Positions 4,167 through 58,709 are shown, counted from the first letter of the stretch. The stretch is DNA of 64,000 nt from Candidatus Staskawiczbacteria bacterium (GCA_016196125.1 JACPYG010000015.1:22966-86965), one strand, 5' to 3'. Notes: generated by a model from the letters alone, not told the origin. Made by a program: numbers and translations.

Positions 4167-5518
4167 TCAAGTAGAGGGTTTATTGCTTTGCCTTCTCCAA
4201 CTAATGTGATTTTTTTGCCGAAAACAAACAGGGCCTGTTCGTCGGTTAGAATACGAAGTTTCTTTTTGATTCCTGAAGGTTTCTGTTTTATTATTTCGGC
4301 ATCTTCTGGCTTATAATGCACAAATATATTTGATTTTACGAGCCCCAAACCTTTTAAACTCATCAGTCCAAATTTATCCTTGTTGTTTTTCCAGCTGGCT
4401 GTTTCAATAGATTTACCAGCAACAATAGAACCTGCTGAAACCCCTATATAAATAATGCCCTTGGTAAGCAATTTTTTAATTATTTTATTAAAACCGCTTT
4501 TACGCATTTGTTTTAATAAATAAAAAACGTTTCCTCCCTGAACATAAATAATATCTACGGCCTCCAATATTTTCATTAATTGACTTTTATTCTTGCCTTC
4601 AATATCAATATCTTCCACATTAAAACCGGCTTCTTTCATAAGCTGCCTGTCTTTATCTGTATAAGAAGTATCTTCTTGGACTTTTGAGGCCGTAATAATA
4701 TGAGCAACCCTGACTTTATCTGCCGGCTTTGAAAGAACCGATAATATTTCTTCTTTGGTCCCTGCCATTCCAGATGAAGTCAAAAGCAACATTTTTGGTT
4801 TTCTGCTTTCTATTAGTTCATTAATAAAACCAATAAACACTCCGCAAGCTATAATTGACAGTAAAATAGCAATTAATCCAACAACAATTAAACCAAATGG
4901 GGTAAGGAAAAACTCCAAAACAGATGTTTTAAAAAACTCCATTTTTAACAAAGGCATTACCCAATATATATTTAATATTTCTATCAAGCTGAATTTTTCT
5001 TCCTTGCCGATAGACAAAACATACTTGCCCCTATTTTCGTAACTAAAAATAGTAATTTTATAATCTCCGGAAGAAAGATTTTTTTCAAACTCCGGACCTA
5101 AAAAATAATAATCTCTGCCAAACGGCTCATAAAATTCTTTCCATAAAAAATCTGTCTGGCCGTCAATAAAAGAGATTTCTTCATCTTCAGCCTGCCCTGA
5201 GGTTGTCGGAGTATTTTTTACTAAAAATATCTTTGCCGAATATCTTCCGTTTGAATTTGAATATGCCGGCACCAAAAGATTAATATATAAATTAAAATCT
5301 TTATCAGAGTGAATTAAATAATTTCTGGGACTTCCGCCCAGCTCGTCATAAAATACCTGTGAAACTTCCGGTTCTTTTACTTGTATGTCAGTTGATTGGT
5401 TGTAAATAATTCTCGGCAAATAAGCAGAGGCAGGCTGGGCAAAACCAAAAAACAAACAAAACGAAAAAAGAAACAAGTTCCTCGCAAAAGATAGTAAAAA
5501 TAATTTCTTAAAAACCAT
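4163..5518 (-). CDS. Membrane protein: signal peptide plus unknown extracytoplasmic domain, TM segment, and C-terminal peptidase S51 (dipeptidase E)-like domain
   Basis: N-terminal hydrophobic leader, central TM (LIVVGLIAILLSIIACGVFIGF). C-terminal IYVQGGNVFYLL...GVSAGSIVAG is the S51 nucleophile-elbow pattern. ATGA overlap with the downstream gene. Confidence 0.6.
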   Translation of the reverse strand: MVFKKLFLLSFARNLFLFSFCLFFGFAQPASAYLPRIIYNQSTDIQVKEPEVSQVFYDELGGSPRNYLIHSDKDFNLYINLLVPAYSNSNGRYSAKIFLVKNTPTTSGQAEDEEISFIDGQTDFLWKEFYEPFGRDYYFLGPEFEKNLSSGDYKITIFSYENRGKYVLSIGKEEKFSLIEILNIYWVMPLLKMEFFKTSVLEFFLTPFGLIVVGLIAILLSIIACGVFIGFINELIESRKPKMLLLTSSGMAGTKEEILSVLSKPADKVRVAHIITASKVQEDTSYTDKDRQLMKEAGFNVEDIDIEGKNKSQLMKILEAVDIIYVQGGNVFYLLKQMRKSGFNKIIKKLLTKGIIYIGVSAGSIVAGKSIETASWKNNKDKFGLMSLKGLGLVKSNIFVHYKPEDAEIIKQKPSGIKKKLRILTDEQALFVFGKKITLVGEGKAINPLLE

Positions 5519-5524
5519 GGCTGT

Positions 5525-5671
5525 CTATCCCTTTTTGCCTTTATTTTTATTTTTTACATTAATATGCTCTAATCTTGCGGCATTGCCCCAAAACCTGTCA
5601 ATGGCTCTCGATCTTAGAGGGTTGTAATTTAATTTGCTTTTTTGAGTATTTTTAGAAATATATTTCTTCAT
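5525..5671 (-). CDS. Possible 48-aa basic small protein (below the ORF-track size cutoff)
   Basis: Own translation: MKKYISKNTQKSKLNYNPLRSRAIDRFWGNAARLEHINVKNKNKGKKG*. It fills an otherwise empty 180-bp spacer; I recognise no homology. Confidence 0.25.
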   Translation of the reverse strand: MKKYISKNTQKSKLNYNPLRSRAIDRFWGNAARLEHINVKNKNKGKKG

Positions 5672-5698
5672 TTTGTTTTATTTTTGCCGTATCATATT

Positions 5699-6022
5699 TT
5701 ATTTGCAATCTTGCGGGCAATCTGTTTTGGTTTCGGCGCAAACGCAATTTATATCATTGTCTTTGCAAATAGCGCTATCTGACTGGCAAATGCCATCACC
5801 GCATTTATCTGAACAAATAGTTAAAAATCCCCGGGGTTCCGGTTGATTTTGCGTATTTTCATTCGGAGTTTCTATTTTTGCTTGGCTTTCGTTATTTTGT
5901 ATTGTTTTCTCCAAATCTTTTGAATATTTATAAATAAAAAATCCGGCGATTAAAACCACAACCAAGATAACTCCTATGATTATTAAAACTTTTTTATCTA
6001 TTTTTGGAAAGATATTCTTCAT
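5699..6022 (-). CDS. Membrane-anchored Cys-rich small protein
   Basis: N-terminal TM (VLIIIGVILVVVLIAGFFIY) and C-terminal CSDKCGDGICQSDSAICKDNDINCVCAETKTDCPQDCK (10 Cys). Confidence 0.5.
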   Translation of the reverse strand: MKNIFPKIDKKVLIIIGVILVVVLIAGFFIYKYSKDLEKTIQNNESQAKIETPNENTQNQPEPRGFLTICSDKCGDGICQSDSAICKDNDINCVCAETKTDCPQDCK

Positions 6023-6226
6023 ATTATTTTTTATTAGACCTGTTTCTTAATAATACATTACTATCTAATTTTATATCTTTTTACAATTTTTTTCAAATTA
6101 ATATCAATAAAAAAAACCTCTTCTGTTATGAAACAGATGAGGTTGATTTTTGTTGTACTTCTTTGCTTTGTTTATTTATTCTTATCCATTTATCGCCTTT
6201 CTTCACCAAAGAACAAAACCGTAATT

Positions 6227-6268
6227 TGGTGGGCCCAGAAGGAATCGGACCTTCTGCCTCTGTCTTAT
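6227..6268 (-). repeat. Orphan copy of the tRNA-Ile 3' half (anticodon position 35 to CCA), 41/42 identical to 6316-6357
   Basis: Direct comparison: TGGTGGGCCCAGAAGGAATCGGACCTTCTGCCTCTGTCTTAT versus ...CTTCTACCTC... in the full gene. Confidence 0.9.
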
Positions 6269-6315
6269 GAATCTGTTTTTACATATTTTTTATTTGAGCA
6301 AAGCTTCCATAACTT

Positions 6316-6390
6316 TGGTGGGCCCAGAAGGAATCGGACCTTCTACCTCTGTCTTATCAGGACAGCGTTCTACCAATGAACTATGGGCCC
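6316..6390 (-). tRNA. tRNA-Ile (anticodon GAU), CCA encoded
   Basis: Manual cloverleaf: GGGCCCA TA GTTC ATTGGTA GAAC G CTGTC CTGATAA GACAG AGGTA GAAGG TCCGATT CCTTC TGGGCCC A CCA. Leader and trailer form a further 12-bp perfect helix (6308-6319 / 6391-6402). Confidence 0.9.
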
Positions 6391-6405
6391 ACCAAAGTTA
6401 TGTTG

Positions 6406-6438
6406 CAGGACAGCGTTCTACCAATGAACTATGGGCCC
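6406..6438 (-). repeat. Orphan copy of the tRNA-Ile 5' half (positions 1-34), 33/33 identical to 6358-6390
   Basis: CAGGACAGCGTTCTACCAATGAACTATGGGCCC occurs twice. Identity stops exactly at the first anticodon base. Confidence 0.9.
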
Positions 6439-6470
6439 TTATACTTAAAAATTTTATCAAAAAAAATTGA

Positions 6471-6505
6471 AAAAGTCAAAAAAAAGCCACGCTTTAAGGT
6501 GTGGC
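6471..6505 (-). terminator. Intrinsic terminator (minus strand)
   Basis: GCCACACCTTAAAGCGTGGC followed by TTTTTTTTGACTTTTTC on the minus strand. Confidence 0.6.
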
Positions 6506-6555
6506 AATGAACAATTGTATTGCAGTAAAGATAGAGAAAAAAAGAGCTAAAAAAG

Positions 6556-6730
6556 CAGTTGGCAGAGGAGACCTGTCATGACGTACAGAGTCTCACAGAA
6601 TTCCGTTCTGCACTGTTCTTGAGCGACGCGCACTGGGGCACATATGCGCAGGAACGTCGTTGGCCGTTCCAGGGCTATAACCCTCCATGAAAAAGGTCAC
6701 AGCCAATCGCGAACAGTGCTCTGCCAACTG
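6556..6730 (-). ncRNA. Candidate structured RNA of unknown class (about 175 nt, GC-rich, no ORF)
   Basis: 12-bp closing helix CAGTTGGCAGAG (6556-6567) / CTCTGCCAACTG (6719-6730). Stacked 8-bp helix CACTGTTC (6611-6618) / GAACAGTG (6711-6718). Hairpins at 6568-6594, 6596-6610 and 6629-6650, plus TTGGC/GCCAA. The strand is inferred from the U-tract and the terminator downstream on the minus strand. Confidence 0.4.
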
Positions 6731-6767
6731 AACATCTATTTTGATAATATCAAAACAAAAAATCTTG

Positions 6768-7580
6768 TCAATATTTTAAGTTATGATTTTTAATTGTAAA
6801 AATAAAAATAAATATGGCAAGCATTATTAAAACTATTGCTCCTCCTGCGGATAAATTAAGATAAAAAGATAAAAAAATGCCGGTAATAACAGAAAAAATT
6901 GAAATAATTTCCGAATATAAAATAGTTTTAATGAAACTTTTTCTTAATTGCAGTGCAGAAATGACTGGAATAACTATCAAGGCCGATATTAATAAAACTC
7001 CAACAATGGGTATTGATAAAGAAACTGTTATAGCCGAAAGAAAAATTAAAATTGTGTTAATTAGTTTTGTGGGTATTCCGCTTACTTTCGCAGAACTTTC
7101 ATCAAATGTAATATATACCAATTCTTTATAAAATACTGCAAGGACAATTATAACTACAATCGCCAAAGTAAAAATAATATAAACATCGCTTACGGCAACG
7201 GTGGTAATGCTTCCAAATAGATAACTGAAAAGATTAGCATTAAATCCGCGAGCCAAACTTAACAAAACTATTGCCAGCGCCAAACTGCCAGAAAGAAAAA
7301 GAGCCAACGCCGATTCGCCATATACTCTTTTTGAAGTTCTTAATTTTTCAATTCCCAAAGAAGCAATTACCGTGGTTCCCAAAGCTGTTAAAACAGGATT
7401 TATGCCTAAAATTAATCCAATCGATATGCCTGCAAGCGACACATGGGCAAGAGTATCGGCTATCAATGAATATCTTCTCAACACTAAAAATACGCCAATT
7501 AGCGGAGCAATAATAGCAACTATAATTCCCGCTTCCAATCCCCTTACAATAAAACTATATTGAAAAATATCTAAAAACAT
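6768..7580 (-). CDS. Metal (Zn/Mn) ABC transporter permease, ABC-3 family
   Basis: 270-aa polytopic membrane protein with ZnuB/TroC-like organisation, in an operon with the ATPase and the ZnuA-like binding protein. Confidence 0.8.
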   Translation of the reverse strand: MFLDIFQYSFIVRGLEAGIIVAIIAPLIGVFLVLRRYSLIADTLAHVSLAGISIGLILGINPVLTALGTTVIASLGIEKLRTSKRVYGESALALFLSGSLALAIVLLSLARGFNANLFSYLFGSITTVAVSDVYIIFTLAIVVIIVLAVFYKELVYITFDESSAKVSGIPTKLINTILIFLSAITVSLSIPIVGVLLISALIVIPVISALQLRKSFIKTILYSEIISIFSVITGIFLSFYLNLSAGGAIVLIMLAIFIFIFTIKNHNLKY

Positions 7581-8390
7581 TTAATGGTTATGATGATGAG
7601 TGATGACTTTGATATTTTGACCGGAAATATTTAAAAATTCGCTTTGTTTTATAAATTCTTCCGATGAAGTATGGCAAACTAAAATGCGGTCAACGCAAGC
7701 AATGTGCATCGCTTCTTTTATTATTCTATCAATGTCGTGAGTCACAAGAACTAATGTTAAATTTAATTCTTTGTTTAATTTTCTCAACAAATTATAAAAT
7801 TCATTCTGGGCATTTTGGTCAACACCGGTTGTTGGCTCATCTAAAAAAATAATTTCCGGCTGTCCGGCAAGCGCTCGGGCAATAAATATGCGCTGTTGCT
7901 GGCCCGAAGACAGGTCGCCAATTAAGCGGTCTTTATAGCCCCACATATCAACATGTTTTAATGATATTTCTATTATTGCATCATCTTCTTTTGTTGCAAA
8001 ACGAAATAATCCTCTTTTGGCAAATCTTGCCATAGCCACAACTTCTCTAACGGTAGCCGGGAAATTTACATCAAAATTAGTGGCTTTTTGCGGAACATAG
8101 CCGACGCGAGACCAATCTTTGAATTTCTTAACATCCTGGCCAAATAACTTTATCGAGCCATGGGATGGATTTAAAAGTCCGAGTATGATTTTTAACAAAG
8201 TTGTTTTTCCTGCTCCATTAGGGCCGACAATTCCAAGGTAATCCCCCATGTGTATATTAAGAGTAATGTCTTTTAACACTTCTTCATCGCCATAGTTAAA
8301 AGATACATTATTAACTTCTATAATATTTTTTGAGTGGTCTACCCTGTTAGAAGTTTTGAGATTTTTTTGTATATAAGAATTATTTTCCAT
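7581..8390 (-). CDS. Metal ABC transporter ATP-binding protein (ZnuC-like) with a His-rich C-terminus
   Basis: Walker A GPNGAGKTT, signature LSSGQQQR, Walker B IIFLDEP, tail ITHHHNH. Confidence 0.85.
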   Translation of the reverse strand: MENNSYIQKNLKTSNRVDHSKNIIEVNNVSFNYGDEEVLKDITLNIHMGDYLGIVGPNGAGKTTLLKIILGLLNPSHGSIKLFGQDVKKFKDWSRVGYVPQKATNFDVNFPATVREVVAMARFAKRGLFRFATKEDDAIIEISLKHVDMWGYKDRLIGDLSSGQQQRIFIARALAGQPEIIFLDEPTTGVDQNAQNEFYNLLRKLNKELNLTLVLVTHDIDRIIKEAMHIACVDRILVCHTSSEEFIKQSEFLNISGQNIKVITHHHNH

Positions 8391-15300: not shown

Positions 15301-15426
15301 ATTATATTATTAATTCAATTTATCATAATTTTTAAAACAAAAAAAGACCCCTGGATAAAAATAAGGTTTTATAGTTTTTGAACCAGTGGTCGGATTTGAA
15401 TCGACTACCGGATTTTATCCCGTTAG

Positions 15427-15498
15427 AGCCGGAGGCGAGATTCGAACTCGCGACTTACTCTTTACGAAAGAGTTACTCTGCCTCTGAGTTACTCCGGC
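15427..15498 (-). tRNA. tRNA-Thr (anticodon CGU), no encoded CCA
   Basis: Manual cloverleaf: GCCGGAG TA ACTC AGAGGCA GAGT A ACTCT TTCGTAA AGAGT AAGTC GCGAG TTCGAAT CTCGC CTCCGGC T. Flanked by CCCGTTAGA / TCTAACGGG, which extends the acceptor helix. Confidence 0.85.
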
Positions 15499-15664
15499 TC
15501 TAACGGGGCAAGTGAAAAAGTTGCTCCCTGTCTACCGACAGGCAGGCGCCTATGAGATGCACTGGCACATAATGACTGCTTCTTTATTCCAATACTATCA
15601 CTGGAAACAGCAAAAATCAATTAGAAAATAATTACCCCACTCCTCAACTAACTATTGTTTTGCG

Positions 15665-56311: not shown

Positions 56312-57847
56312 TTACACAGTATCATAAATTTTAGGCTTATACTGCAATGCCTCTGCCATATGGGAAATAGTTATTTCTTCTGCCCCATCCAAATCGGCGA
56401 TTGTTCTGGCAACTTTTATTGTTTTCATATAAGACCTGGCTGAAAGCTGGAATTTTAAACTTGCTGTTCGCAAAATCCCTTCTATATCTTTTGTCAGTTT
56501 GCAGTATTTCTTAATGTGGCTATTTTTCATTTGGGCGTTTGACTGAATTGAATCTTTTATAAAACGCTCCTCCTGTTTTTCTTTGGCTAAAACAACTCTT
56601 TGTTTGATTATTTTTGATGACTCTAATAGTTCGGAATTTTTCTGATTATCTGAAAACTCTGCCGTATCAACCGGCAAAATGGCGATATGCAAATCAATTC
56701 TGTCTAAGATAGGGCCAGAAATTCTTTTTTGATATTTTTTAATCTGGTTTTGCGTGCAAACACAATTTTTCTTGGGATGATTTAAATAACCGCAAGGACA
56801 AGGGTTTGCCGAAGCCACCAACATAAAATCGGCCGGATATATTACTCTTTGTTTACTTCTTGAAATAGTTAAATATCCATCTTCCAAAGGCTGCCTCATT
56901 GCTTCCATAACATTGTGGGGAAATTCATTAAACTCATCCAGAAAAAGAACACCTCTGTGGGCTAAACTTATTTCGCCAGGATGCGGTTTTGCTCCGCCTC
57001 CGACAAGACCAACTAACGAGGCCGAATGATGAGGCGCCCTGAATTGCCTCTCCGTTATCAGCGAACCGCCTGGCGGGATGCTTCCTGCCACTGAATATAT
57101 TTTAGTTACTTCCAACGACTCTGTTTCATTTAATGGAGGCAATATGCCTGGCAGAGCCCGGGCCAACATAGTTTTTCCCGAACCGGGAGAACCCACCATA
57201 ATAATATTGTGGCCTCCGGCTGCCGCAATTTCCATTGCTCTCTTTGCCTGTTCCTGTCCTAAAACTTCTCTCATGTCAAATTCGGCTGACGAGGGCAGGC
57301 CGCTTAAAATTTTCTGATAAACAACCGGTTCAATATTTCTTTTTTTTAAAAAATATCCTGCTATCTGGATCAAATTTTCAACAGGAAAAACTTTTACCCC
57401 TTTTACTACTCCGGCTTCATTGGCTGAATCCTTGGGAACAAAAAGGTTTGAAAATCCAAATTCTTTGGCAAAAAGAGCCATTAAAAGAGCTCCTTTTGTA
57501 TGCCGAAGAGAACCGTCAAACGATAACTCCCCTAAAAATAATGATTTTTCTGGTATGGGAAACTGCAATACACTGCTCAAAATTCCAACAGCAATGGGTA
57601 AATCATAAAGAGAACCTTCTTTTTGAATATCGGCCGGAGCTAAATTGACTGTGATTTTTTTTGCCGGAAAATCAACTCCCGAACTTGAAATTGCCGCCCT
57701 GACCCTTTCTTTGCTTTCGTCAACCGCCTTGTCTGGCAATCCAACAATTTCAAAACCGGGCAATCCTCTGTTTGCCAAATTTACTTCCACATCCACCTTT
57801 ATTGTTTCAAGGCCCAAATTTACAACAGAAGGCACTTTAATTAACAT
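56312..57847 (-). CDS. comM: Mg-chelatase-like AAA+ protein ComM/YifB
   Basis: GSPGSGKTMLA, VLFLDEFNEF, 511 aa. Confidence 0.9.
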   Translation of the reverse strand: MLIKVPSVVNLGLETIKVDVEVNLANRGLPGFEIVGLPDKAVDESKERVRAAISSSGVDFPAKKITVNLAPADIQKEGSLYDLPIAVGILSSVLQFPIPEKSLFLGELSFDGSLRHTKGALLMALFAKEFGFSNLFVPKDSANEAGVVKGVKVFPVENLIQIAGYFLKKRNIEPVVYQKILSGLPSSAEFDMREVLGQEQAKRAMEIAAAGGHNIIMVGSPGSGKTMLARALPGILPPLNETESLEVTKIYSVAGSIPPGGSLITERQFRAPHHSASLVGLVGGGAKPHPGEISLAHRGVLFLDEFNEFPHNVMEAMRQPLEDGYLTISRSKQRVIYPADFMLVASANPCPCGYLNHPKKNCVCTQNQIKKYQKRISGPILDRIDLHIAILPVDTAEFSDNQKNSELLESSKIIKQRVVLAKEKQEERFIKDSIQSNAQMKNSHIKKYCKLTKDIEGILRTASLKFQLSARSYMKTIKVARTIADLDGAEEITISHMAEALQYKPKIYDTV

Positions 57848-58709
57848 AATATTTGCCTGATTCTTGGTTAATAAATCCTTTTAACTGCATTAAAGAAAGA
57901 GTCGTGCCGACTTTGGCGGCAGATATGCCAAGCGTTCTGGATAATAAATCTGCCTCCATCGGTTCTCTTTTTAATTGCTCAATTATTGTTTTTTCCTCTT
58001 TGCTAAGAATCGAACTTTGCTTTGCTTGACTTTCGGAATTAGATAAATTAGCTGGAGAAACATTATAGTACTTTAAAATATCACTTGCTTCTGTTACAAC
58101 AAAAGCCCCCTCTTTTATTAGTTTTATCGTTCCTTTTGAAACATCGCTGGTAATTTGGCCTGGCACGGCAAATATTTTTCTGCCATATTTTTTGGCATAT
58201 TTTGCCGTTATCAGTGTGCCGCTATTTAAACCGGCTTCTACAACTAAAATTGCTTTTGATAAGCCGGCTACTATTCTATTTCTTCTTGCATATGTCCAGT
58301 TAACTGGTGAAAATTTTCCTTCAAGCTCTGAAATAATCAAGCCTTTATTTTCTAAAATTTCGTAATAAAGTTTTTCCTGATATTCCGGGTGTATCATATC
58401 TATCCCGCATGGCATTACGGCAATAGTTTTACCGCCAATCCTTACTGTTGCGCTATGGGCGGCTTCATCTCCGCCATACATAAATCCAGAAACAATAGTT
58501 ATGCCAGAGGCCGCTATTTCGGTTACAAGTTGTTCTGTTATTTTTTTTCCGTAACCAGTCAAATGCCTTGAACCCACCACTGCCAGGCAATTTTCAAAAA
58601 TTTCTTCTTTCCATTCTCCTTTGTAATATAATTTTTTTGGCGCCTCCCTGCCAATTTCTTTTAATGATTTTGGATATTTTTTATCTTCTATTTTAACGGC
58701 CTTCTCCAT
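57837..58709 (-). CDS. dprA: DNA processing protein DprA
   Basis: AVVGSRHLTGYGK ... GIDMIHPEY ... winged-helix tail. Confidence 0.9.
   Translation of the reverse strand: MEKAVKIEDKKYPKSLKEIGREAPKKLYYKGEWKEEIFENCLAVVGSRHLTGYGKKITEQLVTEIAASGITIVSGFMYGGDEAAHSATVRIGGKTIAVMPCGIDMIHPEYQEKLYYEILENKGLIISELEGKFSPVNWTYARRNRIVAGLSKAILVVEAGLNSGTLITAKYAKKYGRKIFAVPGQITSDVSKGTIKLIKEGAFVVTEASDILKYYNVSPANLSNSESQAKQSSILSKEEKTIIEQLKREPMEADLLSRTLGISAAKVGTTLSLMQLKGFINQESGKYYVN

Follow-up and report, generated by a model that had tools for sequence, protein, structure and literature searches.

How does a tRNA gene come to lie inside a copy of itself, and which of the copies is the working gene? This question is raised by a tRNA-Ile(GAU) locus in a 64-kb stretch of a Patescibacteria (Staskawiczbacteria-like) chromosome (Candidatus Staskawiczbacteria bacterium, GCA_016196125.1, JACPYG010000015.1:22966-86965), referred to below as the window; positions are counted from its first nucleotide. 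A first reading of this DNA (the original prediction) had described a complete tRNA-Ile gene flanked by its own 5' and 3' halves, and had proposed an ancestral tRNA-Ile gene that was split between positions 34 and 35 by a 137-bp insert with its own tRNA-Ile. Disrupted tRNA genes (genes with introns, split or permuted genes, integration sites) offer a classic view on the co-evolution of genes and mobile DNA. The nested tRNA-Ile adds to this view a tRNA gene that is nested in itself, repeatedly, at one exact nucleotide. A full-text literature search returned no account of a self-nested tRNA gene.

This work shows, by comparison of sequences between related genomes, that the split gene minus its cassette is the ancestral state. 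It also shows that the insert belongs to a cassette family: in many related genomes, its members occupy one and the same junction at this chromosomal locus, in stacks of one to three. In such nests, a living tRNA allele is surrounded by a natural series of dated 'fossils', and its leader appears to be made from a trailer.

A tRNA-Ile gene interrupted by a tRNA-Ile gene

The nest is read on the minus strand. It opens with an outer 5' half (6406-6438, tRNA-Ile positions 1 to G34, GGGCCCATAGTTCATTGGTAGAACGCTGTCCTG), continues with the 137-bp cassette (6269-6405) and closes with an outer 3' half (6227-6268, A35 to the CCA end, ATAAGACAGAGGCAGAAGG...CCACCA). Three bases and a leader of 12 nt, followed by a complete tRNA-Ile and a trailer of 47 nt, make up the cassette. 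Its tRNA (6316-6390, 75 nt, CCA encoded), presumably the working gene, is separated from the outer 5' half by the 15-nt segment CAACATAACTTTGGT (6391-6405) and from the outer 3' half by the 47-nt segment AAGTTATGGAAGCTTTGCTCAAATAAAAAATATGTAAAAACAGATTC (6269-6315). ARAGORN in standard mode reports this inner gene alone, and the Rfam model RF00005 (gathering threshold 29 bits) matches it over its full length with 68.5 bits (E = 3.7e-14).

The repeat finder, ARAGORN and the sequence itself agree with every coordinate and with the order of the pieces as originally predicted. The outer 5' half is a direct repeat of 6358-6390 (33/33 identical), and the outer 3' half is part of a direct repeat of 6225-6268 with 6314-6357 (43/44 identical, 41/42 in the tRNA portion). 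The sole difference between the inner and outer tRNA is position 46, T in the inner and C in the outer copy; the orphan halves, when joined, give a 75-nt tRNA that is one base away from the inner gene. Because the flanking bases differ from the inner gene at each junction, the 34|35 breakpoint is unambiguous, with neither overlap nor gap, as had been claimed. Local alignment of the tRNA against its own flanks scored 67 upstream and 80 downstream, while 300 shuffles gave means of 17-19 and maxima of 28-35 (28 upstream, 35 downstream). The flank similarity of the three other tRNAs in the window was not above shuffles. Beyond the outer 3' half, the outer trailer (AATTACGG.., 6215-6226) is still similar to the cassette trailer (ACCAAAGTTATGG vs ACCAAA-TTACGG); the predicted continuation of the repeat into the trailer is genuine, but short.

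Around the inner gene, an inverted repeat (6308-6326 / 6384-6402, 19/19 complementary) forms a 19-bp leader/trailer helix that includes the CCA end, as the original prediction had stated. The leader arm (CATAACTTTGGT, 6391-6402) is the exact reverse complement of A73-CCA-AAGTTATG, in which A73-CCA corresponds to 6316-6319 and AAGTTATG is the trailer arm (6308-6315). The bases CAA (6403-6405) lie between G34 and the helix. The trailer arm is followed by a tail (GAAGCTTTGCTC..AAAATATG..CAGATTC, 6269-6307) that is conserved among cassettes and occurs once within the window.

The intron mode of ARAGORN, which had been suggested as a check, did not recover the outer tRNA-Ile. It reported a false tRNA-Cys(GCA) with a 27-nt intron instead (6246-6438, minus strand), which joins the outer 5' half to the inner 3' part. 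The locus is thereby an annotation hazard, as standard annotators catch the inner gene only and the intron mode produces a spurious tRNA-Cys. As a separate feature, the tRNA-Ile(GAU) at 6316-6390 and most related variants have C at position 55 (T-loop TCCGATT) and a 7-nt D-loop; a U at position 55 is near-universal in tRNA.

Empty and nested sites in related genomes

Comparison loci (denoted by L numbers) were collected with a metagenome scan for the D-arm 21-mer, which returned 18 loci, and further loci were added via homologues of the downstream protein. Most share an upstream structured RNA, a terminator, a TTGAC..TAAAAT promoter and a downstream small CxDxCGDGxCQ protein, and can therefore be taken as the orthologous tRNA-Ile locus of related species. 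The comparison recovered both uninterrupted and nested versions of this locus.

The tRNA-Ile gene is uninterrupted in L089, L091, L094, L085, L099, L101-103 and L116. Most informative is L089, a syntenic locus that lacks the cassette and whose tRNA is identical at 75/75 positions to the joined outer halves of the window, including C46, which supports the predicted ancestral gene with an insert. Homologous cassettes with an identical junction are present in L084, L090, L092, L095, L097, L098, L100 and L108-110. Nests of one level occur in L084, L092, L098 and L108-110, and nests of two or three levels in L090, L095, L097 and L100; L117, L111 and L096, which have a 5' duplication only, were also counted as nested. 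In every nested locus, the junction lies after G34, the opposite of the differing breakpoints that the original prediction had named as a sign against a single insertion.

Each level of L100 has its own matching pair of acceptor strands (GGGTCTG/CAGACCC outermost, GGGTGTG/CACACCC in the middle, GGGCCCA/TGGGCCC inside), so the nesting is real; this also backs the ancestral-insert reading. In L095 and L097, one tRNA-Ile variant is nested within another, and both orders occur. In total, the same architecture was found in at least 12 independent metagenome assemblies from several unrelated projects, with different sequences and zero to three levels of nesting, which makes the assembly artefact that had been considered very unlikely. 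A survey of 139 tRNAs in the Patescibacteria DNA examined found two-sided half copies at tRNA-Ile(GAU) only, in 12 of the 22 such genes.

The same survey material contains a few other tRNAs with partial copies. In two loci (L037 10445-10730 and L029 12330-12610), tRNA-Arg(CCG) is followed, 160-175 nt downstream, by a 3'-half copy that starts from about position 38, and the sequence in between is conserved between both loci. In L012 (~2500-2610), tRNA-Ser(GGA) is preceded by a copy of its own first 25 nt. In the window itself, tRNA-Thr(CGU) (15426-15498, region 15380-15580, minus strand) has a 9-bp leader/trailer helix (CCCGTTAGA / TCTAACGGG) and complementary acceptor strands in its flanks, GCCAGTG.. 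upstream and ..CACTGGT after a T-arm-like hairpin downstream. These flanks, with similarity not above shuffles, may be the decayed outer halves of a second, old nest.

The innermost copy is the functional gene

The innermost copy is intact in all nested loci, while the outer halves decay in several genomes. In L084, they have lost the CCA and have a D-stem defect; in L092, they contain acceptor mismatches and an open reading frame (ORF) begins 3 nt past the acceptor stem; in L090 and L097, the outer 5' halves are mutated or truncated. On this comparative evidence, the innermost copy is shown to be the functional gene and the outer halves its shell. The outer halves of the window are undecayed, and this perfect shell reflects either a recent acquisition or homogenisation by gene conversion.

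Several loci bear traces of exchange between copies. The outer 3' halves of L100 are mosaic: next to the junction they resemble the inner gene, and towards the acceptor end the resident one. In the 5' halves that partner them, the sequence is CTATC, with which the pairing to GACAG is lost. The outer 3' half of L108 has been converted to the inner sequence. The numbers of halves are also unbalanced: 3' units outnumber 5' units in L090 and L100 (the latter with two identical tandem units), and the reverse holds for L095, L097, L117, L111 and L096.

Two further features of the outer halves were observed. The outer 5' halves of L090 and L117 share a triple substitution (GCTGTCCTG to GCTGGAGTG) that abolishes pairing with the 3' anticodon-stem strand, due either to common descent or to selection against misfolding. 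Short GC-rich hairpins have been inserted in loops of outer halves with the stems spared (e.g. CCTGCCTACCGGCAGG; also CCTGTCGGTAGACAGG in the window at ~15530-15545), namely in the D- and T-loops of L100, in the T-loop of the outermost 3' half of L090 and in the D-loop of the outermost 5' half of L095.

A covarying helix encloses the inner gene

In all cassettes, the leader is exactly complementary, in reverse, to A73-CCA and the 7-10 trailer bases that follow it, and the helix always ends directly before a conserved GGA/GAR. Eight cassettes have eight different helix sequences that extend 11-14 bp beyond the acceptor stem, with all pairs Watson-Crick. Among these eight, 98.2% of the alignment cells are paired, two-sided changes are seen in 14 pairs and one-sided changes in none, and no G:U pair occurs; this level of pairing was reached by 0/500 shuffles. 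Un-nested tRNA-Ile genes are without such a leader helix. L111 and L117 are close relatives with a nearly identical promoter and ORF, and their leader/trailer differs at 1/26 positions, whereas the adjoining outer 5' half of L111 is scrambled and unrecognisable compared to that of L117. The conservation of leader and trailer next to a scrambled half points to constraint on the helix.

The native 250-nt precursor is predicted to fold as a tRNA inside a tRNA. When the leader is replaced, the outer 5' half captures the inner 3' acceptor strand in the predicted fold, and the ensemble probability of the inner acceptor stem drops from 0.90 (native) to a mean of 0.60 over 100 shuffled leaders, one third of which fall below 0.5. 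These models moderately support a role of the helix as an RNA folding clamp for the inner tRNA. A comparable arrangement is known from the processing stems of rRNA operons (RNase III), where a long 5'/3' helix also encloses a structured RNA in the precursor; unlike those stems, the helix described here takes in the CCA end and reaches the RNase P site. We know of no enclosing leader/trailer helix for single bacterial tRNA genes.

As no G:U pair or mismatch is present in eight very different helices, we infer that DNA-level templating explains them better than slow compensatory evolution of the RNA. Such templating could be a snap-back across the acceptor-stem inverted repeat, or a later homogenisation of the palindrome. 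It resembles quasi-palindrome template switching and fold-back duplication, in which sequence by an inverted repeat is replaced with the complement of the flank of the other arm. Quasi-palindrome mutations, however, are usually small, one-off events, whereas the leader is coupled to a recurrent 137-bp insertion that is conserved across species.

Cassette ends and tail

Each cassette starts with two or three bases (CAA, CA, CGA or TA) that precede the leader. None of the models considered here accounts for them. The tail follows the consensus GARNYTTGCTC..AAAATATATAG..AGRYTC. The window tail is 68-90% identical to most other cassette tails, 61% to that of L108 and 38% to its own outer trailer. 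RNAalifold, applied to the eight cassettes, predicted neither a conserved structure for the 3' tail nor any pairing of the tail with the outer 5' half, and so does not support a CUG/CAG pairing that had been noticed by eye. Aligned by eye, the tail corresponds to native trailers that extend over the start of the downstream ORF (start codon and first codons), most clearly in L108 (tail CAAAATATTTTC vs native trailer/ORF start ATGCAAAATATTTTTTC). Roughly half of the outer 3' halves have C35 in place of A35 as their first base, which fits a right junction made at an (A/C)TAA microhomology with the ORF start.

Origin of the nest

The reading that we favour, with about even confidence, is a nested copy that arose at the DNA level through strand-switch copying, was then stacked and shuffled by homologous recombination, and kept its helix as a folding clamp. 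The cassette would derive from a tRNA-Ile gene with a trailer that reached the first codons of the downstream ORF. Copying across the acceptor-stem inverted repeat, by snap-back or by a strand switch, would have produced its leader and made it the exact complement of the trailer. Cassettes would have spread, stacked and been trimmed via homologous recombination and gene conversion, with the 33-nt and 42-nt tRNA halves as homology arms. The whole unit would be transcribed from one promoter, and the 19-bp helix would hold the inner tRNA in its own cloverleaf against competition from the half copies, allowing it to be processed out.

Several points weigh against this reading. The in-silico effect of the clamp is moderate. 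Natural transformation tends to remove insertions, not to spread them. For the two or three junction bases, a search of the tail's reverse complement gave no template that was consistent across cassettes. The invariant 34|35 break and the conserved tail suggest a site-specific process or a constrained element over passive duplication; the tail identities of 68-90% (61% for L108) compare with 62-79% for the intergenic flanks of the window and L101, a near relative. Since the window tail is unlike its own outer trailer, the cassette was not made recently in place. Finally, the outer halves of the window, being undecayed, may have a function.

The alternative that survives best, possible but doubtful, is a trans-mobilised, non-autonomous site-specific element that resembles either a mini-element of the rolling-circle type (HUH, IS91/Helitron-like) or a retro-copy made from the pre-tRNA by target priming. 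The DNA of the anticodon loop would be nicked by an enzyme at G34/A35, a single-stranded copy that starts with the tRNA and stops at the ..RYTC end would be inserted, and the leader would be regenerated at every move by snap-back synthesis on the acceptor-stem palindrome. This accounts for the identical cut site in all copies without target-site duplication, and for eight perfect helices free of G:U, as expected if the leader is resynthesised with each move. The identical tandem copies of the A35..RYTC unit in L100, the conservation of the tail across genomes and the mutual invasion of tRNA-Ile variants in L095 and L097 agree with it as well. A possible lead is that the sequence TG|ATA resembles the nick sites of phiX174/pC194-type Rep proteins. 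The left flank CCTG (CTTG in L084) and the ends ATTC, GCTC, GTTC, ACTC or TTTC recall the rule of the IS91 family, which combines a 5'-CTTG/GTTC/GTCC target, a tetranucleotide-terminated end and subterminal palindromes with the absence of a duplication (10.1101/2025.01.24.634351).

However, no HUH protein (including the HUH-Y2 transposase of the IS91 family), reverse transcriptase, transposase or recombinase was found in the window, of which about 50 of the 76 ORFs of at least 70 amino acids (aa) were scanned, or beside the nests in L092, L097 and L100. A CTTG-type target would be everywhere, and IS91-family elements are expected at many sites; the cassette is present once in the window and only at tRNA-Ile among the 139 tRNAs and their flanks. 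CCTG is without the position-2 T that is typical of IS91 targets, and the mosaic outer halves indicate ordinary recombination. Viral contigs were scanned with the tRNA, the leader+tRNA junction and the T-arm/acceptor end, and no carrier was detected. Group II introns are also reported absent from Patescibacteria (PMC13011429). The cassette is like IS91/Helitron elements in the lack of a target duplication and the subterminal palindrome, and possibly in the insertion 3' of a CTTG/GTTC-like sequence and the tetranucleotide end, but unlike them in having a single target locus, no HUH transposase found, and a palindrome that is the extended acceptor stem of a tRNA. The viral scans yielded only a phage tRNA-Ile(UAU) in a tRNA array (L118), which shares its T-arm with the tRNA-Ile of the clade.

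An equally tentative variant sees the cassette as a protein-less, self-homing selfish tRNA minigene that inserts at 34/35 of its own kind of gene, with its leader rebuilt by snap-back at each move by an enzyme in trans (HUH nickase, reverse transcriptase or repair polymerase). Insertion would be costless because the cassette replaces the destroyed function, and repeated invasion, like Russian dolls, would be possible because the cassette recreates the same target inside itself. If an enzyme is involved, it would be a sequence- or structure-specific DNA nickase for the anticodon loop, and the cassette would be the smallest known homing element that restores the function of its target. If none is involved, the nests would show the reach of homologous recombination alone in the stacking of insertions in naturally transformable, tiny genomes.

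We consider it improbable that two separate partial duplications, both ending in a fragile or slippage-prone anticodon loop, produced the nest in place of one insertion. The 5' copy would carry a strand-switched leader, and the 3' copy would be a tandem copy formed via (A/C)TAA microhomology between the loop and the downstream ORF start. The 5'-only forms (L117, L111 and L096) agree with such events, the L117 trailer continuing into the native trailer and ORF, as do the extra 3' units in L090 and L100 and the right junction of L108 (TTTTC|CTAAG), which resembles the native ORF sequence TTTTTC-TAAAA. Yet both breakpoints coincide to the base in every lineage, and the one-sided forms are equally explained by repeat recombination that deletes one side. 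As the window tail is unlike its own trailer, an import or a great age of the cassette would still be needed.

It is very unlikely that the 137 nt represent an intron-like RNA, with the outer halves spliced or held together as a split tRNA to give two tRNA-Ile per transcript. The intact outer halves of the window are predicted to pair around the inner cloverleaf (outer acceptor stem probability 0.86), and the hairpin mini-insertions in D-/T-loops of outer halves spare the stems. Patescibacteria are also unusually rich in tRNA introns, including ones at the non-canonical position 35/36 (PMC13011429). A group I intron would be recognised by a catalytic core (Rfam model), a length of about 200 nt or more, a U as the last base of the 5' exon and a G at the intron end. 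The insert measures 137 nt, of which 75 nt are tRNA; the 5' exon ends with G34 and the insert with C (..GATTC). Searched against Rfam at E <= 1, the region 5000-8000 matched neither a group I nor a group II intron (domain V/core) but only tRNA and chance families (Plastid-ycf2 on the opposite strand, RUF1 and SpF11), and the 137 bp contain no ORF for a group II intron. The motif of a bulge-helix-bulge intron (two 3-nt bulges, 4-bp helix) was absent from the predicted precursor fold and from the junctions on inspection, and no splicing endonuclease (EndA) or ligase was seen among the scanned ORFs of the window.

Comparison between loci leads to the same outcome: the outer halves are decayed in L084, L090, L092, L097 and L111, the C35 in about half of the outer 3' halves would change the anticodon to a non-Ile one, and outer 5' and 3' halves often differ in number. 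A split or permuted tRNA is unlikely as well, given the complete gene between the halves and their decay in relatives. Archaeal and algal split, permuted and multi-intron tRNAs likewise have halves encoded apart and leader/trailer complementarity that holds the pieces. There, however, the halves, joined by bulge-helix-bulge endonuclease and ligase, give the only functional tRNA, whereas here a complete gene lies between halves that look dispensable. With the cyanobacterial tRNA-Leu group I intron, the nest shares position 34/35, and with tRNA group I introns in general an interruption of the anticodon loop, here in an intron-rich phylum. It differs from them in the lack of a ribozyme core, the wrong splice-site nucleotides, the tRNA within the insert and the decay of the outer exons in relatives. 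The nearest literature concerns Patescibacteria tRNA-Asn/Asp group I introns at 35/36 (PMC13011429); the three-type intron list of Castelle et al. 2018, in the form quoted in 10.1101/2025.07.03.662931, is relevant background.

Leftover att sites of a lost integrase island in a tRNA gene, or an assembly artefact, are extremely unlikely explanations: the anticodon loop of tRNA genes is a classic place for integrases to act, islands of this kind have 3'-half repeats at their borders and a short Logan contig of a related run (L001) ends ~28 nt before the repeat, but no integrase was found among the scanned ORFs of the window or beside the nests in L092, L097 and L100, both halves are duplicated, the junctions (CCTG|CAAC left, ATTC|ATAAG right) share no core, the intervening DNA is 15 and 47 nt from a conserved family, and the same structure recurs in the independent assemblies. 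The original prediction, which had set aside both a group I intron and an integrase footprint, is supported in this respect. Genomic islands and prophages in tRNA genes do resemble the nest in that a complete tRNA is kept, a displaced partial copy lies nearby and the break falls in the anticodon loop. Unlike at such sites, both halves are displaced here, without integrase, island or junction core, and what restores the gene is an entire tRNA including its leader and trailer, a stackable unit of only 137 bp.

Transcription unit and genomic neighbourhood

A promoter-like site (TTGACT, 17 nt, TAAAAT, with TG; 6451-6479, minus strand) is located just upstream of the outer 5' half, and the TTGAC..TAAAAT element also precedes the tRNA-Ile locus in L089, L101, L108, L111 and L117. 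No promoter-like site was found inside the cassette, nor a sigma-70-type promoter in the tail for separate transcription of the outer 3' half. A likely terminator, consisting of a hairpin and T-run (AACCTCATCTGTT..AACAGAAGAGGTTTTTTTT, 6109-6144, minus strand), follows the nest; it was read by eye, was not called by the terminator scan and is conserved in L101-L104. With a promoter-like site upstream, none within the insert and a hairpin with T-run behind it, the nest is probably a single transcription unit.

The nest is surrounded by genes for ZnuABC, a 107-aa membrane protein, peptidase S51, PyrF and FtsZ, and the remainder of the window encodes housekeeping functions (ribosomal proteins, EF-Tu/G, SecY, MreB and aminoacyl-tRNA synthetases). 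An exact match of the 107-aa protein is annotated in a Candidatus Staskawiczbacteria genome. Relatives of the neighbouring ABC-3 permease were found at 80 loci, all in Patescibacteria metagenome-assembled genomes, and tRNA-Ile lies beside the transporter in none of these 80, which were used as background in the tRNA survey. Exact-protein look-ups with genes of the window returned only 2-kb Logan contigs that end before the repeat, so that a second assembly of precisely this locus was not found.

Between the tRNA and the small membrane protein, L101-L104 have an intact WG_beta_rep gene (90 aa), which is mostly lost in the window, where a 27-codon remnant persists (6126-6209, minus strand). In the interval that separates the Zn transporter operon from the promoter of tRNA-Ile, there is an unannotated structured RNA of ~175 nt (6545-6745, minus strand). 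Its closing stem measures 12 bp (6556-6567 / 6719-6730), and it has a promoter-like site of its own (6771-6744) as well as a T-run. It has no Rfam match at E <= 1; its minimum free energy is -88.3 kcal/mol (z = -6.87), and its 3' part is conserved in L089 and L101-103. Further along the window (56312-58709, minus strand), a ComM-like Mg-chelatase-family ATPase and DprA, both natural-transformation recombination genes, are encoded side by side.

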